This document shows, one piece after another, positions 1-62,610 of a DNA stretch of 64,000 nt (positions are counted from its first letter, which is position 1; every line of letters begins with the position of its first letter). The notes beneath the pieces were generated by a model. The model did no database searches and had not been told where the DNA came from. It saw only the letters and a program-made list of their open reading frames with translations. Source of the stretch: Vicugna vicugna (taxonomy: Eukaryota); assembly GCA_013265495.1 (NCBI GenBank), contig MU057887.1, positions 4,181,668 to 4,245,667 on the forward strand, in the 5' to 3' direction. The position numbers were made by a program, and so were the translations under genes.

Positions 1-205
1 CAGTGACAACTGCCAACCTTGTGAGTGAGCCATCTTGGATGTCCAGCCCAGCTTACCTCTGGCTATAAACAAACTGCATGAGAAACCCCTGACAAGAACT
101 TCCCACTGGAGTCCTTCCTGAATTTATAACCTAAAAACTATAAGTAAAGTGGTTGTTTAATTCCTCTAAATTTGGTGGTAATTTAGTACACAGCAGTAGT
201 ACCGG
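1..205 (+). mobile_element. MaLR (MLT1-like) LTR 3' part
   Basis: gtgagtgagccatcttggatgtccagccca...ggttgttt...aatttggtggtaatttagtacacagcag. Confidence 0.5.
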
Positions 206-1457
206 GAACAAGTTTCTTACGGAGTCAAATAATTGTGGATTTCGTGGTAATAAGAAAGCAAGAAAAATCGGAAGTGATGGTCAGAGAATTGTGAGCTTAA
301 AATCAAGATTCAAGAGGTAGTGAAGCTACTAGTTATGACAGAATTCCCAATAAAGTATGGCTCATAAGCTTTTCATTTTTTGTTTCAGCTATTGGCATTT
401 AAAATTTTGTGTTTGTGACTTCCGTGCTATGTGAGTGAAATAAAAGACAGATAGTTTGCATTTGTTTATTTTCTAATCTATGAGAAAATTGTCAGAAAGT
501 GTCCCCTGACTTTCTAGGATTGATCTGTGGTCAAGACTGCTGAGACTGTGTTGCTGTTCCAATCTTCCATTGTAAGTCCAGCCAATTTTGTGTTTTGTAC
601 TAACTGTACCATTAGTGGACCACATACTATCAGACTGTTGGCTGGTCAGAAGTCAAGAGTGTTGGATGGGTCACTTATGTGGATGTTCATGTTAACCAGT
701 TTGATGACAAGACTCAGGATTGAAAGGAAAGCTGGGAAGTTTTGGTCAAAACTGTTTGTGAATTCTGGGAAGAGATCTGGAGTTTTGTGGGGAAAATCAA
801 AGAGTGGTTAATACATCCAGACTCCTTGAACCCCAGAAATGAAGAATGTTCTTAGTGTTACTAAAATTGAAAAGACAAATGATGAAAAGGATTTAATCCC
901 CCAGACCTGGTAGAGCCTATAAGCCCTCATTCACTCATTCATTCACATATTTGCTGACCACCTACTGTGTGCCAGGCACTGGGCTTGGAGCTTGGAAGTT
1001 TAAAGAGAGATAAAATACTGTCTCTGTTCTCTTGCAGCTCTCAATCATTGAGAGGGAAACATACATTTATAAATGTCATTCTTACAAAAGCACTGTAATT
1101 GAGATAAAATATAAATTGTTGTTGGACCACAAAAGAGGGCACCATCTGCCCCTGGCCATAGGCCTTTTCTCTCGGCTGGAATGATTGCCATCCAAAGAAT
1201 GATGTCACCTTTCCCATCTTGCGTGAGCTCCTTCTGTCCTGTGGTTTCCAAGCATCAATCACTCAAGAGCCTAATCCTTCAGAAATAATTTTCTACAGAA
1301 ATAAATGGACAAAGAAATATCAGGGCATATAATTTCCATCAAGCAAAAAGGAATAATTTTACTGCCACCTTGTTGAAACTCCAGCATCCCTCTTTAGCCA
1401 AATCTTCTCCACAGTCTCCCTATCCTGCTCCTCCTAACTTTCTTTAATAACCATACT

Positions 1458-1585
1458 GGGAGTGGGTGGGTTATAGCTCATGCTTAGCATGTGCAAGGTC
1501 CTGGGTTCAATCCCCAGTACCTCCATTAAAAAATAGATAAACTTAATTACCTCCCCCCAAAACAAACAAAAACAAAAAACAAACA
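1458..1585 (+). mobile_element. tRNA-derived SINE (camelid vic-1-like), internally deleted
   Basis: tatagctca...gtcctgggttcaatccccag B-box, A-rich tail; TSD AATAACCATACT at 1446-1457 and 1586-1597. Confidence 0.85.
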
Positions 1586-1880
1586 AATAACCATACTCAC
1601 AACCCTGATCTGTCCTTCCCCCACTGCAATATCAGATAACCCTCACCGAATGTGACTCCTCCAGCTGGATTTCAACCACTTCTCTCCCTATGCAGCTCCA
1701 CTTGAAGCCAGAACATGTTGATACCCTAAAAAGTGCCAGTAACATAGCTGGTGCTCAAGAAATAGTTTTCCAATTGAATGAACATAGTCTCAGGGTTATA
1801 ACTTCACTCAGTGCCCATGAATACCTCAGTCCAGCCTGCGCAGCCTGTACTATGTACTGAAAGTTCAGTTTTGGCCTCAG

Positions 1881-2129
1881 TCAGCATAGTCTGTATGGCC
1901 AACTCCAAGTCCAGCCGGATCAGCATCCCGTGGTCAGATACCTCTGTCCGGCACTGTTCAGCACTCGCTGGGGAATCAGCGCCTCCAGCTCCGATCAGTA
2001 CCTGCAGGGGAAACAGCTCCTCCAGCCCCAATCAGCTCGTTTTAGGGCGAAATTTCCGTAGACCCAATCAGCACCCTTTGTGGGACAGCTCCAACCAGCC
2101 CTGATCAGCACCCAGACGTGGACAGCTCC
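1881..2129 (+). repeat. Degenerate ~37-bp tandem array of split RE1/NRSE-like units
   Basis: TCAGCACC-like left halves at 1881, 1920, 1958, 1995, 2032, 2068, 2105, most followed after 7-8 nt by a GGACAGCTCC-like half. Confidence 0.65.
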
Positions 2130-2459
2130 TCATCCTCTGCCCAGTCTCCGTATGACTGACTCAGACCCAGACTTGGGACCTCAGCTCTTCTGTTCTGATT
2201 ACTTGGGACGTCAGCGCAGCTCCTAGAGCAGCCGCACCCACCCCTCCACTAGCCCCCCCCCAAAAAAAACTCAGTTAACCAGAGGTCTGCTGACCGACTT
2301 CCCCACCGCAGTTTCTTCATTTAAGCTCTCACCGCACAAACTGATCCCGCATTCTTACCAATCCACTTTTCACCTGCCCCCACCCCGAAAAAACCAAACT
2401 GCACACCCGATCATTCCCCAACCAGAGCCTCTCAGTCAAACCATCTTGTCTCCTCCAAC

Positions 2460-2900
2460 CAGCTTCCCCGCCATCCCCTCCGCCCTCCTCCCGGGTCCGC
2501 CCTCCTCCCCTCCCCCGGATCCTCCCTCTTCCCGGGTCCTCCCCTCCCTTCCCCCAGTTCGCGCTGCCGCGGTGTCCTGGCGTCGAGGTGTGCCGGCGGC
2601 GGGGTGTCGCAGGGCGTGTCACGAGGTGACTCGGGGCGGGCCGAGGGCGGGCAGGAGGGAGCGGCAAGGGCGTGCGGGGCTGTCGCTCTGGGCACCCCTC
2701 CCCCGCCGCAGTCGGCAGGCCTCTCCCCGGAGAAGATGGCGGATCGGGCGGAGATGTTTTCTCTTTCCACCTTTCACTCGCTATCGCCGCCAGGCTGCAG
2801 GTACGCAACTGGGCGCCCCGGGCCTTGGCAGGCCCTTTCCTTCCTGCAGTCCCCTCTCTGACCCAGTGCCCAGACTCCTCCGACCCGAACCTGCCACCTC
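2460..2900 (+). promoter_or_regulatory. CpG island / promoter of MAPK8IP2
   Basis: CpG-dense, GC boxes (gggcggg, ccgccc) around exon 1. Confidence 0.8.
2736..2800 (+). CDS. MAPK8IP2: MAPK8IP2 coding exon 1
   Basis: aagATGg start; [21 protein letters not shown]; donor AG|gtacgc. Confidence 0.95.
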
Positions 2901-5900
2901 ACCCCTATCGTCTACTGGGTACCCAAGCTCCAGGCCTCTCTCTAGTCCTGACTCCTGCTCCCCATCCCCCACCCCTGGGTTCCTGTTATCTCCATTTTTG
3001 TCCTCCTTTTGTCCCCCCTCCTCCAGCCCAATGACCCTCCACCCCCGATTCCTGCTGAGACTCAGTGCCGCACCCAGCCTGGACAGCCGACCCTTCAAGG
3101 GTGGAGGTCGTGGACTGAGCATCTGAGGGGCAGCCTGCCTGGGCAGGATGCTGAGCACACCCTCTGTGCTTGGCAGTGTCCTTTTGGCCTTGTTGGGTTT
3201 CTTTGGTGGAGGCCTGGCCTGGCCTGTCGGGTTCAGGGAGGGAGAGAGTTGAAATCAAGCCTGGAGCCTGGGGGAAGGGACTAAGGTGGGGAGAAGCCTG
3301 AACCTCCGGGTGTAGGCCTGCCTTGGGTGGGAGTGGGGGACAGAGTGGCCAGACTCTGCTCCTAGAACATGCTCAACCCCTCCTCCTCCTTCTACTGCTG
3401 CAGCTTCATCTCCCCCTCCCCCTTCTCTGCTTAGCCCGACTCCCCTGAGGCTGAGGCTGTGACCCAGAGGGGCCTGGAGCCAAGCACAGAGGGAGGAGAG
3501 GCTGCTCGCTCCATGAGGGAGGAGGACTGGGAGGAGGGTTCGAGGGACAGGCAGCTCTTCTGGGCTGATCATGGCTCAGATGGTGGGAGAATCCATTGGA
3601 GAGTAGAGTCTGAAGTCCAAGATAACGGCAGGATGCAGGTCTGGGAGTCAGGGCTATGGAGGTCACAGGGCCCAGGATCCGGGGGGTGGTCTCTCTGGCC
3701 CCTCCTCAGGACCATCTCCCAGATGGAGAGTCCAGAGTTGGTGACTCGGTCAGGAGCCCAGTCCTTGCTCTCTTACCCTGGTCTCTTCATCAGACCTCCC
3801 CAGGACATAAGCCTGGAAGAATTTGATGATGAAGATCTGTCTGAGATCACCGATGACTGCGGTTTGGGCCTCAGCTATGACTCGGACCACTGCGAAAAGG
3901 TGGGAAAGGGGCTGGGGGCATAGAACTCTCTGAAGGGAGAGTCTCACTTGGGCTCTGCTTAACGTTCTTTTTGGGTTTTAGGGCGGGTCTAAACTTACCC
4001 TTGGAACAAGAAATCCTCTGATTGCCTCCTCTCTCTTGGCCTCTTGACCTGGGTTCTTCCTTGATATCAAACCTCCATTTTTCTAACAGACTATAGGCTC
4101 TCCATTGAGGGCCTTCCCCAGCAGTCCTCGCCTGACCTCCATCACTAGGCTAGCTTGGGGGAGGGAAGATGTGCCTATGCTTTGGTGCCCTCTGTCCTCA
4201 GATCACTTCTCAGAAAGATCTAACCCCTTCCAACTGCCATCTCAGTTTGTCTCCTCCTCAGCCCTTTCCCCACCTCTCAAGCCTCCATCTGTTTGCCTCA
4301 TGTCTCTACCCCTGAAATATTTTCTGCCCCCATCTCCTGCTTCTCCTCCTCCCTATCTCTCCATGTTTGTTTTCATTCAAGAACATTCCTGAGCAACTCC
4401 CAAGTGGCAAGTGCTGGGGGCTTCCTGGTGCCTCGGGGGAAAGCAGGACCAGTGTGGCCCTTACCCTCTGGAGCTTATATCTAGTAGAGGAGAAAGACAT
4501 GTGAAAGGCAGTGGCAGCCTGGGTGTCAACGACTAGATTCCAACGGGGGGACACAGGTGCAAAAAGGAGAAACCACCCGAGAATGAGGCCATCGGGATTT
4601 TCCAGTGGAAATGGTGCACAACCATGCCCTTCAGGAACACCAGCAGGAGCTGGCAGATGAGGGAGATAGGAGAGAATGGAGGAAAGGAACTGCTGGCAAG
4701 GGATTATCTGGTCAAAGTTCCTAACCTGAGGTTGGTGCGAGCTTGGTGAGTCTTGGGTGCTAGCTGTCTTTCTTTCAGGCATCCATTTGATATTTACTGA
4801 GCTTCCAGTGTGGGCCAGGTTCTGTTCTCGGTGGGGGGCAGGGTACACCCATGTACAGTATGTACATGGCCCTATCCTGGTGGAGCTTGCAGCTTGGTGA
4901 GGAAGACAGAACCAAAACTCTATGGTAGTTATGAGTTGTGTTAAAATGCTATGATGTAAAGAGTGCTTGTGTCATATGTGATGGGGTTTGGGGGTGAGAT
5001 GAGGCTGACAGGTGGGTTGTGGAATCTCTGTCACCCAGACTTAAGAGTTTGGGCTCTTAGTTACCAAAAACTGGAGTGATCCTTATGTATCCTAAGCCGA
5101 TAAAAAAAAAAAAGCTGTTGGTGGAAAGCAGAGTGAACTCTGCTCCCCTTTCCTGCCACCTGGGATCCCCAGTCACTGTTCTACTCTGGCCCAGCTCTGT
5201 CCTTTTCTTTCCTGCAGGACAGCCTCTCCCTGGGGCGTTCGGAGCAGCCACACCCCATCTGCTCCTTCCAGGATGACTTCCAAGAGTTTGAGATGATCGA
5301 TGACAATGAAGAGGAGGAGGAAGAGGAAGAGGAGGATGAAGAGGAAGAGGAGGAGGAAGGAGAGGGAGAGGGCAAGGAGGGAGGAGGCCCTGGCTCAGAG
5401 GACACTACTCAGGAGCCCCTGATCCCCTCCCCCTCACTGGAAGAGCCCCACAAGCATCGGCCAACCACACTCCACCTGACAACATTGGGAGCCCAGGTGA
5501 GCATCCAGACTCACAGCATCCTGGGGCTAAACTGGGGTTCCTAGCATCCAGGACTCTGGTCCCCATGGCTGCCTGTCCCCTCTTACCCCTGAGAACTGGG
5601 ACCCTTCCTCAACGCTGCTTTCCTAACCTCCACCTCTCAGGACTCCTTGAACAACAATGGAGGGTTTGCTCTGGAGCCTCCAGGCTCCTGGCAGGAGACA
5701 GTGCTGTGCCCACCCGCCCAGGAGCCCCTCAAAGGTGAGTTAGACCGCAGGTTAGGGGTGCATAAGAAGCAAGGGGGTAGGAGTAGAGGGGAGTGGCCTG
5801 GCTGATGCACCTCCTACTCTGCAGAACCGCCCGCCCCGCTCCCACCCACGGACCTGAGCCCCTGTGGGGCGCAGTCACCTTTGCGCCCAGGTTGCGACTG

Positions 5901-8900
5901 CGAAGGAAACCAGCCCGCAGGGCCCTTGGCACAAGGTGGGGCCTCGCCCTCCTCAGATCCGGGCATAGAGGCCGACCTGGGGAGCTCTAGCGGAGGCCGC
6001 GGGGGCCGGCGCAGCAGCCAAGAGCTGTCGTCGCCGGGCTCCGACTCCGAGGACGCAGAGGGCGCGCGCCTGGGGCGCATGATTTCGTCCATCTCAGAGA
6101 CGGAGCTGGAGCGGAGCAGCGACGACGGCAGTAGCAGCAGCGGCCGCTCCTCGCACCTCACCAACTCCATTGAGGAGGCCTCATCTCCCGCCTCGGAGCC
6201 TGAGCCTGAGCCTGAGCCTGAGCCTCCGTGCCCGCCCCCGCGTCGCCCTGCCTTTCTGCCCGTGGGCCCCGATGACACCAACAGCGAGTATGAGTCAGGG
6301 TCCGAGTCTGAGCCAGACCTCAGCGAGGATGCCGACTCGCCCTGGCTGCTCAGCAACCTTGTGAGCCGCATGATCTCCGAGGGCTCCTCGCCCATCCTCT
6401 GCCCAGGCCAGTGCCTGTCTCCCGCTTCGCGTTCTGCCGCGGAGCCTGCAACGCCCGCCGGTGGGACCCCTGAGGCCCCCGAGGCGGCTACCGGGCCAGG
6501 CGGCGTGGAGCTGGTGGACATGGAGACGCTGTGTGGGCCGCCGCCCCCTGCGCCCTCCGCACCTCGGCCCGGCCCCGCGCAGCCCGGGCCCTGCCTCTTC
6601 CTCAGCAACCCCACGCGAGACACCATTACGCCGCTGTGGGCCGCTCCAGGCCGCGCTGCCCGCCCAGGCCGCGCTTGCTCCGCCGCCTGCTCGGAGGACG
6701 AAGAGGATGAGGAGGAGGAGGAGGAGGCTGGGGATAAGGCAGCGCCCCCTGGGGGCAGAGGCTCGGGCCCTGCGGCGCTGGACGCCTCGCTGGTGTACGA
6801 TGCAGTGAAGTACACGCTGGTGGTGGACGAGCACACGCAGCTGGAACTGGTGAGCCTGCGGCGCTGCGCTGGCCTGGGTGACGACAGTGAGGAGGACAGT
6901 GGTGGCGAGGCCAGCGAGGAAGAGGCAGGGGCTGCACTGCTGAGTGGTGGCCAGGGCCCTGGGGACGCCTCCCCAGACAGCCCCGACCTCACCTTCTCCA
7001 AGAAGTTCCTCAATGTCTTTGTCAACAGCACCTCTCGATCTTCCAGTGAGTGGGGGGTGGGGAAAGGGGGTGGTCCCAGGGGAATAAGCTGCCTCCTAAG
7101 CCCCAGGGCCCATGCAGATCCCCAGAGTGCCCAAGGCAGCCCGAGGGTCTGCGGGTGGTCAGGGCTGGGCATTGCCCTCTTCTCCAGGACCTAGGCCTGG
7201 GGCTTTCCCCAGACCCCCGTGGGGTGGGGAGGGCTGCTCTGCCTCCAACCCCTAATGAGCTGGTTCTCCCTCCCTCCCCACCTGAGGACAACCCACACCA
7301 TACTGTTGGGGGCCGGGGGAACTGGCCAGGCCATCAGGTACTTTCTTTCCTCCTCCTCCCTTCCCCTGAGTCTCTGTCTCCTGTTTCTGTCTCTCAGGCA
7401 CTGAGTCTTTTGGCCTTTTTTCCTGCCTGGTCAATGGGGAGGAGAGAGAGCAAACCCACCGGGCCGTCTTCAGGTACAGCCTCTCCCCCTTGCCATTGCC
7501 ACTGGTGACCCTCCTGAGTCTGCAGATGTTATAGGACACTGCTGGCCTCCTGAGCCAGCCAGTCCTGCCCCTGCCCCAGTGACCTCCCACCTCTGACCTG
7601 ATCTCAGGTTCATCCCTCGCCATCCGGACGAGCTGGAGCTGGATGTGGATGACCCGGTGCTGGTGGAGGCTGAGGAGGATGACTTCTGGTTCCGTGGCTT
7701 CAACATGCGCACAGGGGAGCGTGGTGTCTTCCCGGCCTTTTATGCCCACGCAGTGCCCGGCCCTGCCAAGGACCTGCTGGGTGAGGCCCCATCCCCAGGG
7801 AGTCTCTCGTCACCCCAGACTTCCTCTCGCTCACCTGACCTAGCCCCTTGTGACCCTCCCCCAGGGAGCAAGCGGGGCCCCTGCTGGGTGGAGCGCTTCG
7901 ACGTGCAGTTCCTGGGCTCCGTGGAGGTGCCCTGTCACCAGGGTAATGGCATCCTGTGTGCAGCCATGCAGAAGGTCAGTCTAGAGGTGGGGACCCCAGC
8001 CCCCAGGCTGGCACAACCTTGAAGACCCCAGGCCTCTGCCCTCTTCCACAGAGGGTTCAGGGGATGCCTTGGGGACCTCAGATGCCTGGCCCTCCAGCTG
8101 TGATTCAGAGGCCTGGGCAGGCAAACCCAGGACAGTGCTTAGCAGCTGTCCCCCATCACCTCCCACTGGCCCTTCCTCCCCTTCAACTTGTCCTATTCCT
8201 ACCTGAACATCAAGACCAGCTCTCACAGACCCCTCCCTGGGAGTCATTTGCTCATTCACTGATTCACACAGTGGACACTGAGTGAGCGCTGTCCATCTGC
8301 TGGTCCTGTGATTGAGCAGGAGAGCAGTAGGGGTGCAAGACAGCCCTGTATCCGGAAGCCCCCACTCAGCTCCGGAGACATGCAGTGAGGAGGCCTGGGT
8401 CGATGGGAGGAATGGAAAGAAGGTGAGGCAGGCTGTCCCGGGACTGAGGAATGGCCAAGACCACGCTCCCATCTTCCAGAGCCAGTGCAAGAAGTCTTCA
8501 GATCTAATCTAAAATGTTCCCCCAGGAGGGAAAGACATCCTTGTAGGCCCTTGAGACCCCCTTCTTCCCTGGCTTCTTCTCCAGATTGCCACTGCCCGGA
8601 AACTGACCGTCCACCTACGTCCTCCTGCTTCCTGTGACCTTGAGATTTCTCTTCGGGGGGTCAAGCTGAGTCTAAGCGGAGGACCCGAGGTGGGGGTGTG
8701 AGGACCTGAGGACAGGGGAGGCTGGGGGGTGTAAGGCAGGAGGGTCTGACTGAGGGACATCTGGCAGGGGTGGCTGGAATGGCCCTGGGCCAACTCCACC
8801 TAACCTGGCGCACTCCTGCTTCTCCCCTTCTAGTTCCAACACTGCAGCCACTTCTTCCAGATGAAAAACATCTCGTTCTGCGGCTGCCACCCCCGCAACA

Positions 8901-11215
8901 GCTGGTGAGAGCCTGAGCCACCCCATAGTCCCCGAGGGCTGCCCGCACACAGTCCCGCCTTCCACCCCCCACACCCATTTAGCTCCATGAGCTGAGCCCC
9001 CACATGGCACCCACTCTGCTGGGCTCAGGAGACAAGGATCAGACAGACACACAGACAAGTAGTGCTGGAAGCACCTGTAGGGGATCTGGTGGACGTCTGT
9101 ATGGGGCTCCAGTGGTGGGGCCACTCAAGAGGCAACTGAAGAGCACTCTGCAAGCCTTGAAAGACAAGTAGGTGATAGGGTGGGTCTTCTTGGCTGGGGG
9201 CCAGCTGAGCCAAAGCTGTGGGCAAGGGACACTAGGGTCTTGGGGAGCAGCTGGAATAAAGCTTGAAGGACACTTGGGGTACCTGTGCCCTTCTGACTGT
9301 TCCAGGGAGCTTGTACTTAATCCCACTGATGGTGGGGTCACAGTATGACAGGTTGACAAACTGGCTCTGGCTGCTGGGCAGAGTGGAAGGACCCGGGTGC
9401 TGCGTCCTGCAGGCATTCAGGAGGAGGGGCAGGCAGGACCTGGGTCGATAGGATGTGGTTGATTGGCTGACCTGGAGGGAGAATCAAGGGTGACCTGGGT
9501 GTTAGGAAGATAGGAGCCCACATACCAAGAGAAGAGGTATGTGAGTGGCCGGTCAGGCTGGTGGTACAGTATCCAATCGCAGACGCAGTGAGACTGACGT
9601 GGCTGTTGTTACGTGGGTCTGAATGTGGAAAGGAGACCTGGGGGAAGGAATGTTTCCAAGCAGGTGGGTAACTTTGGCCATGAAGCACATAGGAAGCCAG
9701 ACAGAGTGAGAAGAGACTGGGCTGAAAGGGGAGAAGCATGACCACTGTGTGCCCAGCCAGACTCCTGCGCACGGATCCCAGTGCCCCAGATGAAGGAGAG
9801 AGAAGGAGCTACCCAGCGAGGGAGACAGAGGCACACAGAGGCTCAAAGCGCCCGGTGGTATTTGGAGAAGTGGGTCCTCAAGGGAGGCAGGATGTGGGAA
9901 GGGCAAGCTGCTGCTGGGCCTGGCCTGTGACCGATGCCAAGGCCAGCACATGTGTCACCTGGACGTTGTGGCAAGAGAGTGAGGAGGGCTGTGTCTGCTG
10001 GCCGGCGGTGATATCAACCCTCAGCGGGGTCAGAGTCCTGTTTGGCGGCTTCTCCATTGACAAGGGAGGTGGTTTGAGGGGTCCTCTGTATAGGTGCTGC
10101 TCTGAGGGATGGAGGGCTAGGGTAGAGGGCCAAGGCTTAGCCCGGACGGTGGGCCCGGGGTGGGGCTGGGCAGGCTCATGGTGTCATGTGACATGACAAG
10201 GAAGAGTCAGCCAGGATGTGGTGTCCAAAAGACAGGGGAGAGGCCTGGCTCTGTGGTCCAGGCTCGGGGGAGGGCGAGGGTAGGGGAGGCACAGAGATGG
10301 ATGGCAGTGGCTGGGGAGAAGGAAGACGCAGCTGGACACCCCTGTGGTGAAGAAGTTCACGTAGGTCATTAACTCTTCACAGATGCCCAGCACTGTGTTT
10401 GGACAGGGACCCAAAAGGGGGACTCAAATCTTCAAATCCCATGAGCCGCACATTTCCCTCACCCCAACTCTCTCCTTGAGCCCTCTGTCCCTGCCTCTTC
10501 TCCCCAGTCACTGGGGGCTGAGGTGTGAGTCCGCCTTGGCGTCCCTCCATGCCAACTTTCCCTGCCACCCTGCAGCTATTTTGGCTTCATCACCAAACAC
10601 CCGCTGCTGAGCCGCTTTGCCTGCCACGTCTTCGTCTCCCAGGAGTCGATGAGGCCCGTGGCCCAAAGTGTGGGGTGAGTGGGTCCGGAGGGTGGGTATA
10701 GGATTAGGGTTGGGCCAACGCGAGCAATGGCTGGACTGGCGGGGCAGGGAGCAGAACCCATGCAGCAGTGACCTGGGGGGTGAGCAAGCTGGGAGGATGC
10801 GGGGATGAGGTTTGGGGAGACTTGGGGACAGGGGAGGTGGGAGAGGAGGAAGGTCAGGTGAGAGTGATGGAGGTGGAAGGTTGGGAAGGTGGTAGTTGGA
10901 ACACTTGGGCAGGAGCGTTGGGGGATCCTGGGGATGGAAAGGGCACAGTTGCATTGCCCGTGGGGGTGGGGGTGTGGGTGGGGGTGGGAAGGCAGCATCG
11001 AGGCCAGACAGTAAGGGAAGTGGTCTGTGCTGCGGACATGGTTGCTGGGCCAGGAGTGCTGAGTGAAGCTGGGGGGTGATGTGGGCAGGCCCAGGTGGGG
11101 GGGCTTGGGGGCTTTGGGGGCTGAGGACTCTCTCTCCCCCAGCCGCGCCTTCCTGGAGTACTACCAGGAGCACCTGGAGTATGCCTGCCCCACCGAGGAC
11201 ATCTACCTGGAGTAG
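2736..11215 (+). CDS. MAPK8IP2: MAPK8IP2 / JIP2 JNK scaffold, complete spliced CDS (12 exons, 2472 nt, 823 aa)
   Basis: join(2736-2800,3794-3899,5218-5496,5641-5734,5825-7045,7398-7473,7608-7780,7865-7974,8585-8689,8834-8904,10576-10674,11143-11215). All introns GT-AG with consistent phases. Starts [22 protein letters not shown], contains the JNK-docking RPTTLHL, SH3 and PTB domains, and ends [11 protein letters not shown]. Confidence 0.97.
3794..3899 (+). CDS. MAPK8IP2: MAPK8IP2 exon 2
   Basis: catcag| [35 protein letters not shown] |gtggga. Confidence 0.95.
5218..5496 (+). CDS. MAPK8IP2: MAPK8IP2 exon 3 (acidic tract, JNK-binding motif)
   Basis: ctgcag| [34 protein letters not shown]...[16 protein letters not shown] |gtgagc. 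Confidence 0.95.
5641..5734 (+). CDS. MAPK8IP2: MAPK8IP2 exon 4
   Basis: tctcag| [31 protein letters not shown] |gtgagt. Confidence 0.92.
5825..7045 (+). CDS. MAPK8IP2: MAPK8IP2 exon 5 (large central exon)
   Basis: ctgcag| same frame as ORF 5881..7194; [54 protein letters not shown] |gtgagt. Confidence 0.95.
6196..6225 (+). repeat. Coding hexamer repeat (GAGCCT)x5 encoding [10 protein letters not shown]
   Basis: Five perfect copies inside MAPK8IP2 exon 5. Confidence 0.9.
7398..7473 (+). CDS. MAPK8IP2: MAPK8IP2 exon 6 (start of SH3)
   Basis: tctcag| [24 protein letters not shown] |gtacag. Confidence 0.94.
7608..7780 (+). CDS. MAPK8IP2: MAPK8IP2 exon 7 (SH3)
   Basis: tctcag| [57 protein letters not shown] |gtgagg. 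Confidence 0.95.
7865..7974 (+). CDS. MAPK8IP2: MAPK8IP2 exon 8 (PTB start)
   Basis: ccccag| [36 protein letters not shown] |gtcagt. Confidence 0.95.
8585..8689 (+). CDS. MAPK8IP2: MAPK8IP2 exon 9 (PTB)
   Basis: ctccag| [35 protein letters not shown] |gtgggg. Confidence 0.93.
8834..8904 (+). CDS. MAPK8IP2: MAPK8IP2 exon 10 (PTB)
   Basis: ttctag| [23 protein letters not shown] |gtgaga. Confidence 0.94.
10576..10674 (+). CDS. MAPK8IP2: MAPK8IP2 exon 11 (PTB)
   Basis: ctgcag| [32 protein letters not shown] |gtgagt. Confidence 0.95.
11143..11215 (+). CDS. MAPK8IP2: MAPK8IP2 last coding exon (kinesin light chain-binding tail)
   Basis: ccccag| [26 protein letters not shown]. Confidence 0.95.
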
Positions 11216-11848
11216 CCGTCCTGCTACTGGGAGCAGCTGGGGCTGGAGGTGTCTCAATAGGCCACCGCAGCTTTGGCAAGGACTGGACTGGGGGCACGTG
11301 GGATCTGACATCCAGGGAGTCTCCGGGCTATGCTGGGAACTCTCCTTGCTCCCCTGGGGCTGCTGGAGAGTGGAGCCTGCGCCTCCGCTTCCCCTGATCC
11401 ATTCTCTCTCTGTGTCACCTGGTCTGCCCTTGGCCTCCCTCCTCTCTCCTCCTGTCTGTCTCTGCCCCCTCTGTGCCTGCAAACCCTCTCCCTCTGCTCT
11501 TTACTTTGGGGTCAGAACTGGGAGGGGTGTGTGGCGGAAGCTCCCAGGTGATTCCCCCCTCCCACTCGCCCCCTGTGATTTATAAAGGAATTTTAATTTT
11601 TATAGTGAATATCAAGGAATCTTCCCATCCTTGACCATAGGAACCAAGAGAGGGACCCCATACTGCCCCCCACAGAGGTCAGGGGAGGCGGGAAGGAGTT
11701 CCTCAGAAGGGCCCTGGGGGGACTAGGAGCCGTTCCTGATGCTCACCCCAAGCCCCAGACGCTGCTAGGAGGAGGTGCCCGGCCCCGGGCCCCGGCCACA
11801 CCAGCACCTGCTTTGCCGCTGCAAACACTCCCCGCAGTCCAGCACCTC

Positions 11849-11854
11849 AATAAA
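11849..11854 (+). terminator. Polyadenylation signal of MAPK8IP2
   Basis: First AATAAA seen after the stop (~630 nt), followed by GT/T-rich sequence (cttggtgtg...tgtttctgggg). Confidence 0.75.
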
Positions 11855-14225
11855 CTCTCTGCTTGGTGTGACCCTGGCTGTTTCTGGGGTTGGGGAAGCA
11901 GGCGCAGGGCCAGGTGCCGCCCATGGCACGGGGACCAAGTCGTGAGGAGGTTCACCCTTTCAGTGCTCTCCAAAACCATGTCGGGAATTCTCCCCAAATG
12001 CTCCCGGTTGGTCAGCGAGGAAGCTGAGACCAGAGAGAAGCGGTCATGGGATGTGTGTTCCTTCCACCTGTGCAGGAGTGGGTGTGCAAGGGGGTCTGAG
12101 GGTGTGCGTGCTCATGACTGTACGTGCGCGCTTGTGAGTGTGTGTGAGACAGCAGGGGTCAATCTGCTTCAATCTTAAGCCTGGAATTTTCCGAATTTTC
12201 CACAGAAAGCCAGAGGAAAAAAGGTGACTATTTTTCACTATGCCCTAGGTGATTATAGATGCTACCTCCTGGAGAAAGGGCTTTCCTGCTCTCCTGTCCC
12301 TGAATGAGCCCCAGCTCTCAGGTGCTGAGGTCAGCATGCAGTCAGTGCCTTCCTGAGGGTGGGCCTGGGCCCCTAACCCTGAGCCCAGGATGAGAGCAAC
12401 ACCAGGAAGACAACAGGCGAGGCTACGAAACAGGAGTGAACAGCTGCAAGTTCAGACAGATTCATTCCCTGAAGACTGAAAACTGCTGTCTGTAAAAATC
12501 ACACACTCTGCTCTAGTCAAGGGCAACCAGCAAATGGAAATACAGTCACAGCATTAGGGGTCAGTAAATGCCCCACACCTTCAGCATTTGGGAAGCCCCT
12601 GCTCAGGCCAGGGCTCCAGACCAGCGGCACGCCAGCACCCGGGAACATGGCAACCACGCGGCAAGAAGACCAAGTAGAGCATCTGTGGGAAAACGCTCCT
12701 ACTGACTGAAATTGAAAGAGGCGTGGATGTGTTTGTTGGAAGCTTGTACCTTCTCTGCAGCTGGGCGTGGGGCGTGCCCTCCGACCCCACGGCTGTAACA
12801 CTCGCCTTCTGCTCTCTGTCCGGAGGGAATGCCCCACACCCCCCAGGCCCGTCTCAGGGAAGGCGCCATTTGCTCAGCCAGCCTGAGTCCCTGCTGGGCT
12901 CAGTCCCTCCCCCACTCATCTTCCCACTTCTTTGTATCATTAACTTTTCCCTTCCTGCTGGCCCTTTAGGACAGCTGTTGGACATGCTTGGGCTTCCTTC
13001 ACCTGGAACAGCTCCTGCTCTGTGGGGCCTCCCCACACCTGCCCACTTCCTCCACCTCTCTGGCCCCTTCCTGCACCTCGCCGAATGTTCCTTCTCAGAC
13101 CTCGTGGTCTCCAGCTGCGCTGCGCTCCAGACCCCCACTCCGGCTCTGTCCTGGGCTCTCCCTCGCTGGCTTCCTTCCTCCCCGAGGACTCACCTTCCCT
13201 GTGCTGAGGGCCCCAGCGGCTTACCTCTGACCTTCAGTGGCACTCCCTGGGCCAGCCACTGGCCGGGTGCTTTGTGAGTTTTCATAAATATAGTGACCCT
13301 CGCAAGGGCGCTAGGGTGCAGAGGAACAAAACACAGACACAGAACTTACATAAGCCTTTCCCCCACCTGCCCCCATTCTGTGATCTGTGTTTTACGCTTT
13401 TTTCCACTTTCCTGAGCTGGAGTCCTGGAGTCACCCTAGACTGCCCCTGCTGTCACCTTCATCCCCACCCCGTCACCCCTACATCTGCCTGTCCCCCTCC
13501 CTGCCTCTACTTGGATCAAACCACCTTGAGTTGTTGCCTGGATCTTTATGCAACAAGCAGCCTCCTCCAGGCTCCCTGCCTCCACCTGTGTCTGCAAATC
13601 CACCTGCACCTGCAACCAGACCAGGATTTTTAAACAGAAACCTGAGCAGGCCCCTCACCCTCAGATGCTGCTGTGGTTCCCTGTTGAACTTCAGCCTGCC
13701 CCATCCCTGCGCCTCTCCAGCCCCGTCTTCCCTCTACCCCATTTCTGCCCTTAGAACCTGGGCTTCCTGCGGGCATCCACTACCCTTCTCTGCATGTTGC
13801 TGTGTGAACTCCTGTCCTTCTGGATGCCAGGGGCCCTGGCCCTGCCTGCCCCCCTGCAGAGGCTGCCGACCGTGAGTCCGAGCGCAAGACGTGGCTAATG
13901 ACCTCATACTCCCAGAGCCTGGTGCAGAACCTGGTGAGCCCCCCATGCCAGGACTCTGACTTCTGGAAATCCAGCCAAGGATAATACCCTAAATGAAAAG
14001 CTCTGTACACGTTCTTGTTTAAGGTGTTGAAAGCATAAATACAATCTAAATATTGACCACTAGGGTTAACTAAATTAAGGTATATTTACCTAGTTGTAAT
14101 ACTGGGCAGATATGAAAAACTGTGCTTACAAATATTTAGCAATAATACAGAAAATATTTGTCATGCTGTTAAGGAAAAAATATGCAGAATCTGTGCTAGA
14201 AACTATGTTGAAAAAGACTGAAAGG

Positions 14226-39116: not shown

Positions 39117-39413
39117 NNNNNNNNNNNNNNNNNNNNNNNNNNNNNNNNNNNNNNNNNNNNNNNNNNNNNNNNNNNNNNNNNNNNNNNNNNNNNNNNNNNN
39201 NNNNNNNNNNNNNNNNNNNNNNNNNNNNNNNNNNNNNNNNNNNNNNNNNNNNNNNNNNNNNNNNNNNNNNNNNNNNNNNNNNNNNNNNNNNNNNNNNNNN
39301 NNNNNNNNNNNNNNNNNNNNNNNNNNNNNNNNNNNNNNNNNNNNNNNNNNNNNNNNNNNNNNNNNNNNNNNNNNNNNNNNNNNNNNNNNNNNNNNNNNNN
39401 NNNNNNNNNNNNN
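39117..39413. other. Assembly gap (N run, 297 nt)
   Basis: Run of N inside the SHANK3 5' CpG island. Confidence 0.99.
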
Positions 39414-51500: not shown

Positions 51501-54500
51501 GGACTCTGAGAACCAAGGACATGTGAATGGCTTGGCATTCCCAGAACTTAGAGCAAACAGCCTAGGCTGGAGCCCTACTGAGCTGAGCATGGGGAGTGGA
51601 ACATAGATGCTGGCTCTGCAGATAGACGGTCGGGGTCCAGGGCAGCCATGGCATCTGCTGCCCGTGTGGCCTGGGGCAGACCAGCCAACCACTCTATGCC
51701 TGGGTTTCCCAGCAGTAAGGTAGGACTGGCCCTACCCAAGATGTTTCCTTCAGGAAGCCTTCTGGAACCTGGGCAGTGAAGGCTCCCTATTGGGACCCCC
51801 TGACCTGCAGCACAGGCCAGCCATTGCTGATTAAGTCATCTCTCCTCCCTGAATCTTGAGGGCGGGAGCTGTCATTCTTGTTTCCTATGATTTCCCCATA
51901 GAAGGTGCTCAGGAGACATGTTGAATGAAAGTGACTTAAATAACACTTTGTTCTCACAACAACAGCTGAGCTGAGCAGCCTAGTGTGTATCATCTCACTT
52001 AACCTTGAACTTATATGAGGCTGTGCTGTATTTTACAGATGAGGGTCCCAATGCTCAGGTGGGGTGAGTGACTTGTCCAAGGTCACAGAGCTAGGAAGCA
52101 GCTTAGGTAGACCCCAAGGAGACCTGATTCCCAAATGTACTAAGCCTGAGTGTCTTGCAGTGGGCTTGGGGCACAGGGGAGCTTATAGAAGCCGCTTTTT
52201 CCTCTGCTCTTGTCCCTGCTCATACAGCCTTGACTTGTGATGTCTTCTCTGTCTCTCAGTGTCCTTACCCAGACTCCAAGGCTGTCTTCCTGCCCCAGAT
52301 CACTTCAATTCTCCCCCAAAACTTTTGCATGGCCCATGGATTTTCTAATGGTGGGATGGCTCAGTGACTAAAAGAACAAACTTTGGGATGTTTCAGTTTT
52401 GCAGATGAGCTGCTTCTGAGCTGGTGGTGTGTGAATGCCCTGGTTTCATTCATATTTTGTATATTCATTAATTTTTTCAGCAAACAAAAACTAAGACCTG
52501 TTCTGTGCAGGGCTCCAGCTCACTGTCCTGTGGGGACAGCAGAATTATTATGGTTTTTTCTGACATTTAGTAGTATCCAGAGTGCCAGATGTGGTGGGAG
52601 CTAATAGCAGGGGTCCTAAAAGTCTGAGAAGGACATTGACAGCTGGGGCCCAGGGCTAAGAAGCAGTTAGGTGGGTAGTGATCCAGGTAAGGGAGCCTAC
52701 CGGTGAGTGGCCAGGAGTGGGCTGAGGAAGTCTGGCGCAACCTGGAGGGATAGGGTCTGGGGGATGGGGGCAGAGGGAGAGGTCACCTTTGGTGGAAGGA
52801 GAGAAAGTGGCATTTGAGCTGCTTTTGAGGAGGTGGGGGCAGTTCCCCTAGCGCCCCCTGTTGGCCGTTGGCAGAGCCTGGCATGAAATGTGGTCACAGA
52901 GGTCCACCAGCATCACAGGGCAGGGCAGAGAAAGGTGGATTTGGAGCTGAGAGACAGTAACTTAACAACTGGCTGGATGAGCAGGATTTGAATAGTTGAG
53001 GTGTTGGGAACAGCATCATGAACAGCCTGGGGAGGAGTAGGAAGGTACCATGTGACTGGAGTGTAGCTAATTCACAGCCCAGAGAGCCTGGCTGTTGGCT
53101 GAGAATGTGAACCTGGTCAGCCTAGATACCGGGGAGCCAGTGCAGGCTCTTGAGCAGGGTCAGGCTCGGTGCCCAGGTCGGGGGAGTGGTCCAGGGAAGG
53201 TGGTCAGCGTGGAGTGGGCATGAACATCAGGGACAGGTGTCCAGGAGGAAAGGACACAGGTCTGGCGGGGGATTTGGGCGCCCAGCACATTCAGCGGTCA
53301 GGGTGTGAAGAGGCCAAGGCCCGAGCTGGAGGGTGGGGTGCGGACTCACTGGGGGAGCCCCTCCTGGCGGTGAGGCGAACCTTCACTGAGGCGGCTTTTC
53401 TGATGTCTTAAGCCCCCAGTCCCCTCTCCAGCTCCCACCTGGCCGCTCTGACCACCGTTCCCGCCTCCCCCTTCCCTGGGCTTCTCTGTTCGACCCCTCC
53501 TCCCCCCTCTGCGCACAGTAGTCCTCTTCGCCCCTGTGGCCTCTCCCGCGTCGGGGCCGCGGCGACCGGGCCGCAGGGGGAGAGGAGGCAGCCCGGCCCG
53601 CCGCCTGCAGAGGGAGGAGCCGGGCCGCGGAGGAGGCGGGGCGCGCGGAGCGGCCGCGGCATGGAGCGAGCCCGGCGCGCCCGGGAGCGCAGCCCCGCGG
53701 CCCCGGAGCCCTGAGCGGGCGCGGCTCGTGCGCTGGCGGGAGCTGGCCGGGCGCGNNNNNNNNNNNNNNNNNNNNNNNNNNNNNNNNNNNNNNNNNNNNN
53801 NNNNNNNNNNNNNNNNNNNNNNNNNNNNNNNNNNNNNNNNNNNNNNNNNNNNNNNNNNNNNNNNNNNNNNNNNNNNNNNNNNNNNNNNNNNNNNNNNNNN
53901 NNNNNNNNNNNNNNNNNNNNNNNNNNNNNNNNNNNNNNNNNNNNNNNNNNNNNNNNNNNNNNNNNNNNNNNNNNNNNNNNNNNNNNNNNNNNNNNNNNNN
54001 NNNNNNNNNNNNNNNNNNNNNNNNNNNNNNNNNNNNNNNNNNNNNNNNNNNNNNNNNNNNNNNNNNNNNNNNNNNNNNNNNNNNNNNNNNNNNNCGGGGG
54101 GCGGGGTCGCGGGGGGTGCGGCGTGGGGCGAGGGGCCTCCTGGGCTTTGAAGGCGCCACTCGGGGGTGGATGGCCGGGCTTCTTGGCGATCGAGGAAGGG
54201 CTGATGCCATTTTGGGGTGTCTCTCATTAGGGGTGTCCGTGGAAACTCTGAGCCTCTGTGGTCATTATGGGATGCGTCTGCCACTGGGGATTCCTTGTGT
54301 CGCTGTGAAGGGCTCAGTCAGGGAGGGGTGTCTGTCTGTGTGGGGTTCCTGTCATGTGGGTCCCTCTCCATCCTCTGTCGTTATGGGTTCCCTGTGTCAC
54401 CATAGAGGCTCTTCTCGTCATGGGGGTGTTTCTGTGTCATAATGGGGGCTAGTGTCATTGGGGTTCTCTGTGTTTGTAGGGCCCTGTCCCTTCCCTGAAT

Positions 54501-60500: not shown

Positions 60501-62610
60501 AGAGCTAGTCTGGAAGGCCTGGGGTGAAGAGGTCAAAGCCGGCAGAGGTGGTGCCCAGCCCACCTGTCTTCTACCTTCCCAGATAAGTCTGAGGACAATT
60601 CTTAGGCACATGTGGGGGTCAGCCTGGCCAGCCGTGCTTTCTGGCAGGTTTCTCCTTACCCCCTCCCTGTTTCCCTCCATCAGCGATTATGTCATTGATG
60701 ACAAGGTGGCTGTTCTGCAGAAACGGGACCATGAGGGCTTTGGTTTCGTGCTCCGAGGGGCCAAAGGTAATGAAGGGTAGGGCACCGGGCTGGCAGGGGT
60801 GGTGCACAAGTCGGGGTGTCTTCTGTGTCTTGCGGCTGACCCTCCCCTCTTCTCTCCTCCTGCCTATCCCCTGCCCACCATGTTCACCCCTGCCCCCTGC
60901 CCTTTGCCCCTGCCTCCCTCATTCCTGGCCTTGCCCTCCCCCCGCTTTCTTCTCTCCCTCTCTTTCTCCCCTTTCTGTGACTCTGTGTTCTTAGTCTGGA
61001 GTGTTGATGGGAGGCAGCAGTCTCTTCCCTCATTGATTTACGGGATCTCTGCTGTGTGTCGAATGGTGTGGGAGGCCTTTCTGGTAGGAGTGAGCTGGGG
61101 GAGGGTATTTCTCAGAGGGGCGTGTTCTGGAATCCTGGGCTGGGTCACTCACGGGGTTGCTGTGTGGCAGCTGCCCCCACCTGGGCCACGCTGGTGAGGT
61201 GCCGTCCTAACTTCCCTCACCCCAACTCCCACAGCAGAGACCCCTATCGAGGAGTTCACGCCCACGCCAGCCTTCCCCGCGCTGCAGTATCTGGAGTCGG
61301 TGGATGTGGAGGGCGTGGCCTGGAGGGCTGGGCTGCGCACTGGAGACTTCCTTATCGAGGTGAGGCTCATCCTTATCTGTGCAGCCCCAGGGGGTGCTGA
61401 CCTCTGGGCCCCCAGGAGAGCACACCTGACTTCCCCACCCACCCCCTGTCTGTCCCAGGTGAATGGGGTGAATGTGGTGAAGGTTGGACACAAGCAGGTG
61501 GTGGCTCTGATCCGCCAGGGCGGGAACCGCCTCGTCATGAAGGTGGTGTCAGTGACAAGGAAGCCAGAAGAAGATGGGGCTCGGCGCAGAGGTGAGGTCT
61601 CAGGCTTTGGTCCTCTGTGCCCCGTCTCTCCCCTCTGGCCCCTGACCTTAGACCTTGACCCCAGGCCCACAATCCTCGCCTCACCCCTGCCATGGCCCCA
61701 GACTGCCGACGTCAGGTGCCTGAGCCTACACGCCCACATCTGTGGCCTGAGCGCCAGTCCCTGATGCTAACCCTGGTCCTGGCCAACCCTGGTCCCGGCC
61801 TCTGACCCCTGACCCCAGGTTGCCCTTCCTAAAGTCCCTGCCCCCTCCTTCCCGTCGGCATCCCGGCCCCTGGCATGGAAGAGCCCTCCTTCCACTGCCG
61901 GCAGCTGCCTGGAGGCCGGGGTTGCCATAGCAACTGTGAGGTTGACGCTGCTGCCGCTTATTGTGGAGGGAGGGGGAGGCGGCACCTGAGGGAAGAGGAA
62001 GAGCGTCTTCTCCCCGCGCCGACGTCGCGGCACAGCCTGGGCCCAGGCGCTCTGCCGGCCTGGCCCAGCCCAGCCCAGGCCCTGGCTTGGCTGACCACAC
62101 CCTGGTCCCCTGAGGTGCAGTGGCCTCCGAGGCCTGAGGGGGCCCTGGAGCAGCAGGGGACCGGCCTGCCGGGAGACCCCTCCCAGCCCCCACCCCATGG
62201 CTCTGGTGCCCCCTTGCTCAGCCCTCGAAGCCTACGGCGCAGGCACTCAGACCGGGGCTGGCCAGCACCGTGACCCACCTGGGGCCCTTGACCACGTCCT
62301 GAGGCCCCGACCACCCCGGCCCAGCCCGGCCCTCAGCACCCCTGAGCTCCCAGCGCCATGAAGAAGTTTGCGTCTAGCCGCAGCCTGAACAAGATCCTGG
62401 CACAGTGCGACTCGTCCTCCCGGGAGTACGAGGAGATCCAGGCGGTGGAGCGCAGGTGGCACCTGCACCTGGCCACGCCGCGCTGCCTGCTGCTGGACAG
62501 GAGGTCCAAGGCCTCCCTCTTCTTTGCAGCCCCGCCGCCCCCCAAGAGGGCCCCCAGCACCACGCTGACCCTGCGCTCCAAGTCCATGACGGCAGAGCTC
62601 GAGGAGCTTG
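39504..62610 (+). CDS. SHANK3: SHANK3, 5' part (exons 1-17; exon 11 hidden in gap; gene continues beyond the window)
   Basis: join(39504-39566,39921-40124,40980-41051,42976-43084,43160-43311,43406-43573,43672-43788,44166-44243,45184-45250,50676-50949,[gap],55191-55304,60348-60423,60684-60766,61235-61359,61459-61591,62530-62610). SPN domain, ankyrin repeats, SH3 and PDZ recognisable. Confidence 0.96.
39921..40124 (+). CDS. SHANK3: SHANK3 exon 2 (SPN domain)
   Basis: ccgcag| KCLRLDPAAPVWAAKQRVLCALNHSLQDALNYGLFQPPSRGRAGKFLDEERLLQEYPPNLDTPLPYLE |gtgagc. Confidence 0.95.
40980..41051 (+). CDS. SHANK3: SHANK3 exon 3
   Basis: gagcag| FRYKRRVYAQNLIDDKQFAKLHTK |gtaagg. Confidence 0.95.
42976..43084 (+). 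CDS. SHANK3: SHANK3 exon 4
   Basis: ttccag| ANLKKFMDYIQLHSTDKVARLLDKGLDPNFHDPDSG |gtaaga. Confidence 0.95.
43160..43311 (+). CDS. SHANK3: SHANK3 exon 5 (ankyrin)
   Basis: acccag| CPLSLAAQLDNATDLLKVLRNGGAHLDFRTRDGLTAVHCATRQRNAAALT |gtcagt. Confidence 0.95.
43406..43573 (+). CDS. SHANK3: SHANK3 exon 6 (ankyrin)
   Basis: cgtcag| TLLDLGASPDYKDSRGLTPLYHS...DENGWQEVHQ |gtgggc. Confidence 0.95.
43672..43788 (+). CDS. SHANK3: SHANK3 exon 7 (ankyrin)
   Basis: ccccag| ACRFGHVQHLEHLLFYGADMGAQNASGNTALHICALYNQ |gtgtgc. Confidence 0.95.
44166..44243 (+). CDS. SHANK3: SHANK3 exon 8 (ankyrin)
   Basis: ccatag| ESCARVLLFRGANKDVRNYNSQTAFQ |gtacac. Confidence 0.95.
45184..45250 (+). CDS. SHANK3: SHANK3 exon 9
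   Basis: ccgcag| VAIIAGNFELAEVIKTHRDSDV |gtgagt. Confidence 0.95.
47630..47769. mobile_element. MER5A1-like hAT-Charlie MITE
   Basis: agtgcttctca...gattctgacgcagagggtctgggtggagcctgagattttgcatttct...ccacacttt resembles the remembered consensus. Confidence 0.6.
47778..50292 (+). mobile_element. MER58A-like hAT-Charlie MITE split by the L1 insertion (arms ~47778-47830 and ~50117-50292)
   Basis: TIRs TAGGGCTTGGCAAAC / GTTTGCCAATCCCTG; 8-bp TSD GTCTAGAC / GTCTAGAA. Confidence 0.8.
47830..50115 (-). mobile_element. L1 fragments in antisense orientation within SHANK3 intron 9
   Basis: T-rich strand; ORF 48727..48960(-) KHKLPKLTQEEIENLN is L1 ORF2-like; 3' UTR-like WINK segment in 48126..48407(-). 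Confidence 0.85.
50524..50635. mobile_element. MER81-like hAT-Blackjack MITE (palindromic)
   Basis: TIRs TAGGGTGGCCA...TGGTCACCCTA; inner arms tcctggtttgcctg / taggcaaaccaaga. Confidence 0.7.
50676..50949 (+). CDS. SHANK3: SHANK3 exon 10
   Basis: ccccag| PFRETPSYAKRRRLAGPSGLASPRPLQRSASDINLK...SQSKI |gtagga. Confidence 0.94.
52849..52866 (-). promoter_or_regulatory. CTCF-like motif in SHANK3 intron 10
   Basis: Minus strand GGCCAACAGGGGGCGCTA vs consensus GGCCACCAGGGGGCGCTA. Confidence 0.6.
53440..54200 (+). promoter_or_regulatory. Intragenic CpG island at SHANK3 intron 10 / exon 11
   Basis: Extremely GC/CpG-rich flanks of the gap; SHANK3 is known to have an intron-10 internal promoter. Confidence 0.75.
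53756..54094. other. Assembly gap (N run, 339 nt), expected to contain SHANK3 exon 11
   Basis: Run of N; exon 10 and 12 phases are incompatible and the N-terminal half of SH3 is absent. Confidence 0.95.
55191..55304 (+). CDS. SHANK3: SHANK3 exon 12 (C-terminal half of SH3)
   Basis: ctccag| LSIGEGGFWEGTVKGRTGWFPADCVEEVQMRQYDTRH |gtgagt. Confidence 0.95.
58600..58980 (-). mobile_element. L2 3' end (reverse) with degenerate (CCAT)n tail
   Basis: catccatc-rich tract followed by gagtgcctgttatgtgccaagtgctgtac...gagctcacaatcagtgg. Confidence 0.55.
60348..60423 (+). CDS. SHANK3: SHANK3 exon 13
   Basis: cctcag| TREDRTKRLFRHYTVGSYDSLTAH |gtacag. Confidence 0.95.
60684..60766 (+). CDS. SHANK3: SHANK3 exon 14 (PDZ start)
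   Basis: catcag| DYVIDDKVAVLQKRDHEGFGFVLRGAK |gtaatg. Confidence 0.95.
61235..61359 (+). CDS. SHANK3: SHANK3 exon 15 (PDZ)
   Basis: ccacag| (A)ETPIEEFTPTPAFPALQYLESVDVEGVAWRAGLRTGDFLIE |gtgagg. Confidence 0.95.
61459..61591 (+). CDS. SHANK3: SHANK3 exon 16 (PDZ end)
   Basis: tcccag| VNGVNVVKVGHKQVVALIRQGGNRLVMKVVSVTRKPEEDGARRR |gtgagg. Confidence 0.95.
61921..61934. promoter_or_regulatory. RFX X-box
   Basis: GTTGCCATAGCAAC, one base from the palindromic consensus GTTGCCATGGCAAC. Confidence 0.7.
62358..62610 (+). CDS. SHANK3: Alternative SHANK3 first coding exon (intron-16 start, in frame into exon 17; Shank3e-like short isoform)
   Basis: gcgccATG; MKKFASSRSLNKILAQCDSSSREYEEIQAVERRWHLHL...SLFFA runs without a stop into exon 17; coding-like GC3-rich codons. 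Confidence 0.7.
62530..62610 (+). CDS. SHANK3: SHANK3 exon 17
   Basis: ttgcag| PPPPKRAPSTTLTLRSKSMTAELEEL |gtgagc. Confidence 0.94.

Follow-up and report, generated by a model that had tools for sequence, protein, structure and literature searches.

The MAPK8IP2 promoter and its setting

The DNA analysed here, referred to as the window, is a 64,000-nucleotide stretch of the Vicugna vicugna genome (GenBank assembly GCA_013265495.1, contig MU057887.1, positions 4,181,668 to 4,245,667 of the forward strand). It includes MAPK8IP2, with SHANK3 downstream. The identity of MAPK8IP2, which an initial annotation had proposed from the letters alone, is borne out by an exon at 7603-7782 that matches the JIP2 SH3 domain at 52 of 52 aligned residues (E=3e-33, compared with E=6e-21 for JIP1). 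The promoter region of the gene is CpG-rich (Table 1), and no TATA match was found in 1500-2700. A tandem array of RE1-like units ends about 170 bp before the CpG-rich stretch, and its two intact members lie 607-668 bp upstream of the MAPK8IP2 ATG.

Table 1. Array units and promoter features of MAPK8IP2 in the window
Feature	Coordinates	Strand	Description	Basis
Unit 1	1881..1919	+	Decayed; gap 8; 4 mismatches; CAGCAC core and GGA broken	
Unit 2	1920..1957	+	Decayed; 5 mismatches	
Unit 3	1958..1994	+	Decayed; 4 mismatches; left core intact, gap 8, right half without GGA	
Unit 4	1995..2031	+	Decayed; 3 mismatches; 78% identity to unit 3, the closest pair	
Unit 5	2032..2067	+	Most decayed, 6 mismatches; adjoins the intact pair	
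Unit 6	2067..2092	+	Intact split RE1; left half 2067-2075, 7-bp gap, right half 2083-2092	Half-site match
Linker	2093..2103	+	11 bp between the intact sites	Sequence
Unit 7	2104..2129	+	Intact split RE1; left half 2104-2112, 7-bp gap, right half 2120-2129	Half-site match
Partial eighth unit	2161..2190	+	Spacer of unit 7 kept; indels in both halves	Gapped local alignment
Promoter region	2301..2900	.	CpG-rich, CpG o/e 0.72-0.92; GC boxes at 2480, 2497, 2634 and 2645	
MAPK8IP2 first coding exon	2736..2800	+	ATG at 2736; in-frame splice to exon 2 at about 3794-3899	Read from sequence

Several other features of the window were recorded. Within the promoter, 2465-2543 is a C-rich degenerate repeat with a period of 17-24, and its G-rich opposite strand could form a quadruplex. 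The decayed 3' copies just downstream of the intact pair hold a perfect AP-1 heptamer (2157-2163) and a CRE with one mismatch (2206-2213); an AP-1 site in the promoter of a JNK scaffold might provide feedback, but this heptamer has 11 occurrences on the window's + strand. A short SINE with an A-rich tail and a 12-bp target-site duplication (1446-1457 and 1585-1596), which we take to be of the tRNA-like class, was read by eye at 1446-1596, some 290 bp before the array. Two RNA runs contain 43% of the sampled words of 1700-2800, a mostly upstream stretch; this may represent upstream transcription or DNA carry-over and carries no weight as evidence. The 14 DNA-type runs listed contain 95-97% of the sampled words of 1700-2800, with no hint of large copy-number variation, and 10 of them may be the window's own source. 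Inside SHANK3, 62333-62357 carries a perfect RE1 left half, a 7-bp gap and a right half with three mismatches, directly before an ATG at 62358. Read by eye, this ATG stays in frame for about 57 codons through the end of the intron into the next exon, presumably the SHANK3 exon after the PDZ region, and it possibly belongs to an internal-promoter isoform. Runs of N, i.e., assembly gaps, lie at 39117-39413 and 53756-54094, in GC-rich parts of the SHANK3 region.

The array and its intact pair

The initial annotation had described seven units with a period of 36-39 bp, and its starts and quoted letters are all present in the sequence: the units begin at 1881, 1920, 1958, 1995, 2032, 2068 and 2105, in steps of 39, 38, 37, 37, 36 and 37. 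The self-identity of 1881-2141 is highest at lag 37 (0.478) among lags 5-89. This value was reached by 0/1242 windows of 261 nt elsewhere (maximum 0.443; N-free windows only, leaving out six higher-scoring windows that overlap the two N runs) and by 0/2000 shuffles (maximum 0.373), and these controls exclude chance as the source of the 37-bp period. TRF, run on the window, called no 37-bp period and reported only 1974-2038 with a period of 19, which suggests that the array is old. Minisatellites consist of head-to-tail units of tens of bases that arise by tandem duplication, as is the case here, and units 1-5 have spacers and linkers in common; the high unit identity of such repeats is absent, with pairwise values of 47-78% set against a mean of 49% for random pairs. 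The array is thus a fossil of the minisatellite type, and the period test and the decayed unit identity support the old tandem repeat that had been proposed as its origin.

The array continues on its 3' side, where 2161-2190 is a gapped copy of unit 7 with a local score of 33, reached by 0/956 control windows (maximum 31). Within it, the segment 2171-2185 is duplicated again at 2201-2215. This brings the array to a minimum of eight copies and places the live pair inside it, not at its end. Two possible upstream extensions, at 1803-1841 (58-65% identity to the units; random 95th percentile, 59%) and at 1842-1880 (47-58%), were missed by a profile search and are not counted. A metagenome scan with the two-unit pattern returned 79 loci, 0/79 of which resemble the window's upstream DNA (best E=0.91), and chance matches in bacterial DNA seem to account for them. 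In seven of them (L004, L007, L012, L024, L045, L068 and L071), the search pattern is matched by a shared short tandem repeat of roughly 25-28 bp, probably one bacterial element that is unrelated to the array.

Units were scored against the RE1 half-site consensus, which agrees with the matched half-sites in the rows of Choi and Lee. Units 6 and 7 each match 18/18 consensus letters, with the CAGCAC core intact and the left half before the right half on the same strand, which is the arrangement of a split RE1/NRSE. A scan of both strands with gaps of 0-12 bp finds two perfect split sites in the window, and these are units 6 and 7, which also carry its only perfect right halves. Under a third-order Markov model, one such site is expected at 3.6e-4 per window, and about three perfect sites with gaps of 7-9 bp would arise by chance per 2 Gb. 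In contrast to this split type, which had been correctly recognized as non-canonical, no canonical RE1 (2-bp gap) with fewer than four mismatches was found in 1-14000, and with a 2-bp gap the right half of each unit shows 6-8 mismatches. Units 6 and 7 agree at 18/18 positions of the halves, at 1/7 of the spacers, and at 6/17 of spacer plus preceding linker, or 8/17 with a shift (Fisher p=3e-5 to 3e-4).

Counterparts in human and mouse

In human, an 855-bp REST peak at 22:50599717-50600572 was found in 23/23 ENCODE REST experiments (Choi and Lee 2024, PMC11025195, supplementary file 4). The half-sites given for this peak lie on the + strand, which is the strand of the gene, in the order left, gap 6, right, 1 bp, left, gap 7, right (PMC11025195). 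With the start of human MAPK8IP2 at 50600793 in hg38 (PMC12111097), we compute from these published coordinates that the four half-sites are about 490-540 bp upstream of the gene start, a distance similar to that in the window. The two pairs also agree in left-right-left-right order on the gene's strand and in 37/38 half-site letters, an identity that is partly by construction, since the human halves were chosen by motif scan. They differ in spacing: the human pair has gaps of 6 and 7, a 1-bp linker and a period of 26, whereas the pair in the window has gaps of 7 and 7, an 11-bp linker and a period of 37. Judging from these sequence comparisons, the human pair under the MAPK8IP2 peak is very probably the orthologous element. 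Choi and Lee paired passing halves up to 49 bp apart (PMC11025195), and in their rows for the 855-bp peak no passing half-site pair is listed besides the four halves of the two-site pair. A term search of their supplements for the gene name MAPK8IP2 gave no match; the pair is listed there as four rows by coordinate.

In mouse, ChIP-PET clusters lie 5' of Mapk8ip2, at a distance of 624 bp in ESC (28 tags) and of 643 bp in NSC (14 tags) (Johnson 2008, PMC2573930), and E13.5 pancreas has a 190-bp REST peak at -422 of the gene (Rovira 2021, PMC8415321). The shared position of the REST peaks in human and mouse, for mouse the position of the peak itself, suggests that the pair predates the human-mouse split. 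REST had been named as the binder of the array, and the published human (23/23) and mouse ChIP peaks at the orthologous position bear this out; by analogy, REST would also bind the pair in V. vicugna.

At the gene level, MAPK8IP2 is among 24 REST signature genes (PMC4139778), a signature defined by an at least 2-fold rise on REST knockdown in HEK-293, MCF10a and T47D (Wagoner 2010, PMC2883591). In Rest knockout pancreas, Mapk8ip2 goes up with a log2FC of 0.37 (-0.37 in control-versus-knockout sign; adjusted p=0.06), a weak shift in the same direction as those of Chga and Snap25 (PMC8415321). In neuroblastoma, MAPK8IP2 and REST mRNA correlate at -0.20 in lines (p=0.31) and at +0.23 in tumours (p=0.02) (PMC4139778), and the positive tumour correlation speaks against a simple repression rule there. 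REST sites within 1 kb of the TSS go with the strongest de-repression (Johnson 2008, PMC2573930). The element of units 6-7 is the putative cause of the repression of MAPK8IP2. The paralogue MAPK8IP1 is, as had been stated, REST-repressed: it has an RE-1, and REST reduces it in beta cells (Martin 2012, PMC3447792). This likeness is at the gene level only.

Decayed units, gap lengths and alternative readings

The initial annotation read the array as a seven-unit multi-site REST silencer with site quality highest nearest the promoter and with conserved halves between diverging spacers. The best sites, units 6 and 7, are indeed nearest the promoter; however, mismatches to the consensus across units 1-7 number 4, 5, 4, 3, 6, 0 and 0, which is a step and not a gradient. 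Likewise, the contrast between halves and spacers holds for units 6 and 7 and fails for units 1-5, where adjacent pairs match at 30/56 positions of the halves (without the TCAG anchor) versus 42/76 of the spacers and linkers (p=0.86). Units 1-5 have decayed uniformly over halves, spacers and linkers. In the published account, REST fingers ZF7-8 contact CAGCAC and ZF5, 4 and 3 contact the right-half triplets, with ZF5, which is required, on GGA (Tang 2021, PMC8096226). Units 6 and 7 keep every finger contact named there. Among units 1-5, GGA of the triplets GGA-CAG-CKC is found in 0/5, CAG in 2/5 and the CAGCAC core in 1/5 (unit 3), so that all five break the ZF5 triplet and four of the five break the ZF7-8 contact. 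Unit 3 is thus the best candidate among the decayed units for weak residual (left-half) binding; in split sites, the ninth C is barely conserved (Tang 2021, PMC8096226). Based on the within-species comparison of the five units and their absence from the stringent human list, units 1-5 appear to be decaying neutrally, with little or no added binding.

The decayed units also bear on what the ancestral repeat was. When the majority letter is taken at each column of units 1-5 alone, the outcome is a gap-8 split site one letter off the right-half consensus, and the spacers of these units have a G-rich end in common, as common descent predicts; this points to a split RE1, or something a single step short of one, as the ancestral unit. 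A different origin, which we hold possible at perhaps one chance in a few, is that the ancestral repeat had AG instead of GG in the right half and was not yet a REST site, and that REST sites arose later in two copies. Units 1-5 have A as the first right-half letter in 3/5 and G in 1/5; the unit is made of three CAGC-N-CC-like pieces, and TRF reports a 19-bp sub-period. On the other hand, unit 1, the farthest copy, has GG, and with 1/7 spacer letters in common, units 6 and 7 did not arise by recent duplication of a single improved copy. This question concerns the origin only.

Much the same evidence makes it unlikely that most of the seven units bind REST, forming a graded silencer whose weak upstream sites would contribute occupancy when REST is high. 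Such a silencer could draw on the TCAG found in 5/5 upstream units, on the best right-half match falling at gap 8 in 4/5, and on the intact left core of unit 3; half-sites alone can bind REST (Tang 2021, PMC8096226), and weak RE1-like sequences are found beside strong ones (Johnson 2006, PMC1557810). However, TCAG is the anchor that defines the units, GGA and CAGCAC are lost as given above, preservation in units 1-5 does not favour the halves over the spacers and linkers, and the rows for the human peak hold no passing half-site pair beyond the four halves of the two-site pair. The claim of seven sites is therefore not supported, and two remain.

The second difficulty lies in the gap. At 7 bp in both intact units, it is inside the range bound in vivo, given as 7-9 bp with none at 3-6, the latter said to be impossible (Tang 2021, PMC8096226), or as 7-11 bp (Johnson 2008, PMC2573930). 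The first human site, with a gap of 6, is contrary to the rule against 3-6 bp. In an MPRA of 204 atypically spaced motifs, repression was seen only at 8- and 9-bp gaps (Mouri 2022, PMC9903721), a range in which units 6 and 7 do not fall; the parts of the supplements of that study that were searched contain no element at the human MAPK8IP2 position. The spacer range of 7-10 nt given in the initial annotation is therefore sound for binding, but in that reporter screen repression was confined to 8-9 nt. This lowers the case for a silencer on its own, not for a REST-bound site.

Our gap counts cover the MAPK8IP2 rows and, of the 125 rows with altered gaps in Choi and Lee, the first 60. Within those 60 rows, gap-7 sites (n=10) were bound in 14-23 of 23 experiments (mean 20.7), and 3/10 reached 23/23, compared with 16/20 gap-8 rows (mean 22.8; p=0.015); the single gap-6 row was bound in 7/23. 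A weaker left half occurs in 0/10 gap-7 rows versus 6/20 gap-8 rows (p=0.07), again among the first 60 of 125, and the pair in the window has a weaker first left-half letter, unlike all 10 gap-7 rows, which have the best left half. Gap 7 is bound but sub-optimal. That doubling compensates for it is plausible though unproven; it is not a requirement, since a gap-7 site can reach 23/23 on its own.

It could accordingly be argued that the pair binds REST and silences little alone, with the response to REST loss coming from another site or arising indirectly. The MPRA limit of 8-9 bp, the lower rate at which gap-7 rows reach 23/23 (3/10 vs 16/20) and the small effect in Rest knockout pancreas (PMC8415321) all point this way. 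We consider this improbable, more so than graded binding, as against it stand the human peak in 23/23 experiments, the lack of a better site in the gene within the window, the strong de-repression that goes with sites <1 kb from the TSS (Johnson 2008, PMC2573930) and the preservation of all four halves between species. Chance resemblance of low-complexity, C-rich promoter DNA to RE1, for which one could cite that TRF left the 37-bp array uncalled and that some unit pairs are 47-58% identical, near the 49% random mean, is refuted by the period test (0/1242 and 0/2000), the two perfect sites and the same arrangement under the human peak.

A probable two-site REST element and its relatives

Altogether, units 6 and 7 are most likely a two-site REST element of MAPK8IP2 that survives from a decayed tandem array of at least eight copies of 36-39 bp. 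The element is probably a two-site silencer, not a seven-site graded one. One REST monomer would occupy each intact site, with ZF7-8 on CAGCAC and ZF3-5 on the right half, while ZF6 would be flipped out to bridge the gap, following the mechanism of Tang 2021. The 11-bp linker would probably let two REST molecules be bound at once, as at CELSR3, where the linker is 9 bp; two-molecule occupancy of the pair is thus predicted by analogy. The 1-bp linker of the human pair may admit one REST molecule at a time, given that ZF1-2 would lie 3' of the right half. In non-neuronal and progenitor cells, REST on the pair would hold the CpG-rich promoter, 200-500 bp downstream, silent, and JIP2 would be made where REST falls, in neurons and endocrine cells.

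The period of the pair differs by 11 bp, or one helical turn, between the species (37 bp, or 3.5 turns, here; 26 bp, or 2.5 turns, in human), and in a comparison of two species this may be coincidence. A more speculative extension, to which we give little credence, is a geometrically tuned two-molecule silencer. In it, doubling would offset the sub-optimal gaps and the weaker left halves, the half-integral-turn period would put the REST molecules on opposite faces of the DNA, the human gap-6 site would be a working exception to the 3-6-bp rule, and unit 3 might add a third weak contact. It draws on the two species, on the left-half counts of 0/10 vs 6/20 (p=0.07) and on a pair with a period of 36 at human 14:35534600. 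The peak there (14:35534600-35535848; 22/23 experiments) contains a second tandem split RE1 pair, with gaps of 10 and 1 (PMC11025195), and is a natural comparison for the question of spacing. If true, tuned spacing would overturn the view of Johnson 2006 that the spacing between tandem RE1s is unconstrained.

The two-site element has several known relatives. The tandem NRSE pair in CELSR3 exon 1 (Tang 2021, PMC8096226) likewise consists of two split sites head to tail, and in EMSA it gave two shifted bands, one REST per site. It differs in layout, running left-11-right-9-left-11-right inside an exon, whereas the pair in the window has 7-bp gaps and lies upstream of the promoter in a longer decayed array. 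Tandem RE1 clusters, defined by at least two head-to-tail sites within 100 bp, include 27 pairs and groups of up to five, all head to tail, for example at SNAP25, L1CAM and KCNN4; weak copies are found beside strong ones, tandem duplication was proposed as their origin, and their spacing is not fixed (Johnson 2006, PMC1557810). Units 6 and 7, on the same strand with a period of 37, have this arrangement. However, the published clusters are matches to the canonical 21-bp matrix, and the array in the window consists of split sites only, with at least six decayed sister copies; the element works like tandem RE1 clusters but does not by their definition belong to the canonical class. The same half-sites and orientation recur in the atypically spaced RE1 silencers of Mouri 2022 (PMC9903721), where the repressive spacers have 8-9 bp, compared with 7-bp spacers here.

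REST control of MAPK8IP2 (at the level of gene and peak), tandem RE1s and split RE1s are known already. A search of the open-access literature found no description of this array, which is weak evidence of absence; as far as that search shows, what is new is to read the MAPK8IP2 peak as the pair of live copies in a fossil array with eight or more members, together with the change of gap and linker between species. The element offers a natural test of whether sites with 6-7-bp gaps silence when doubled and whether the spacing of tandem REST sites is constrained. The array, in which two live copies stand next to at least six dead ones, clearly documents the duplication and later decay that Johnson 2006 proposed for tandem RE1s, and its base-level anatomy identifies the probable cis-element of a gene from the 22q13 (Phelan-McDermid) region.
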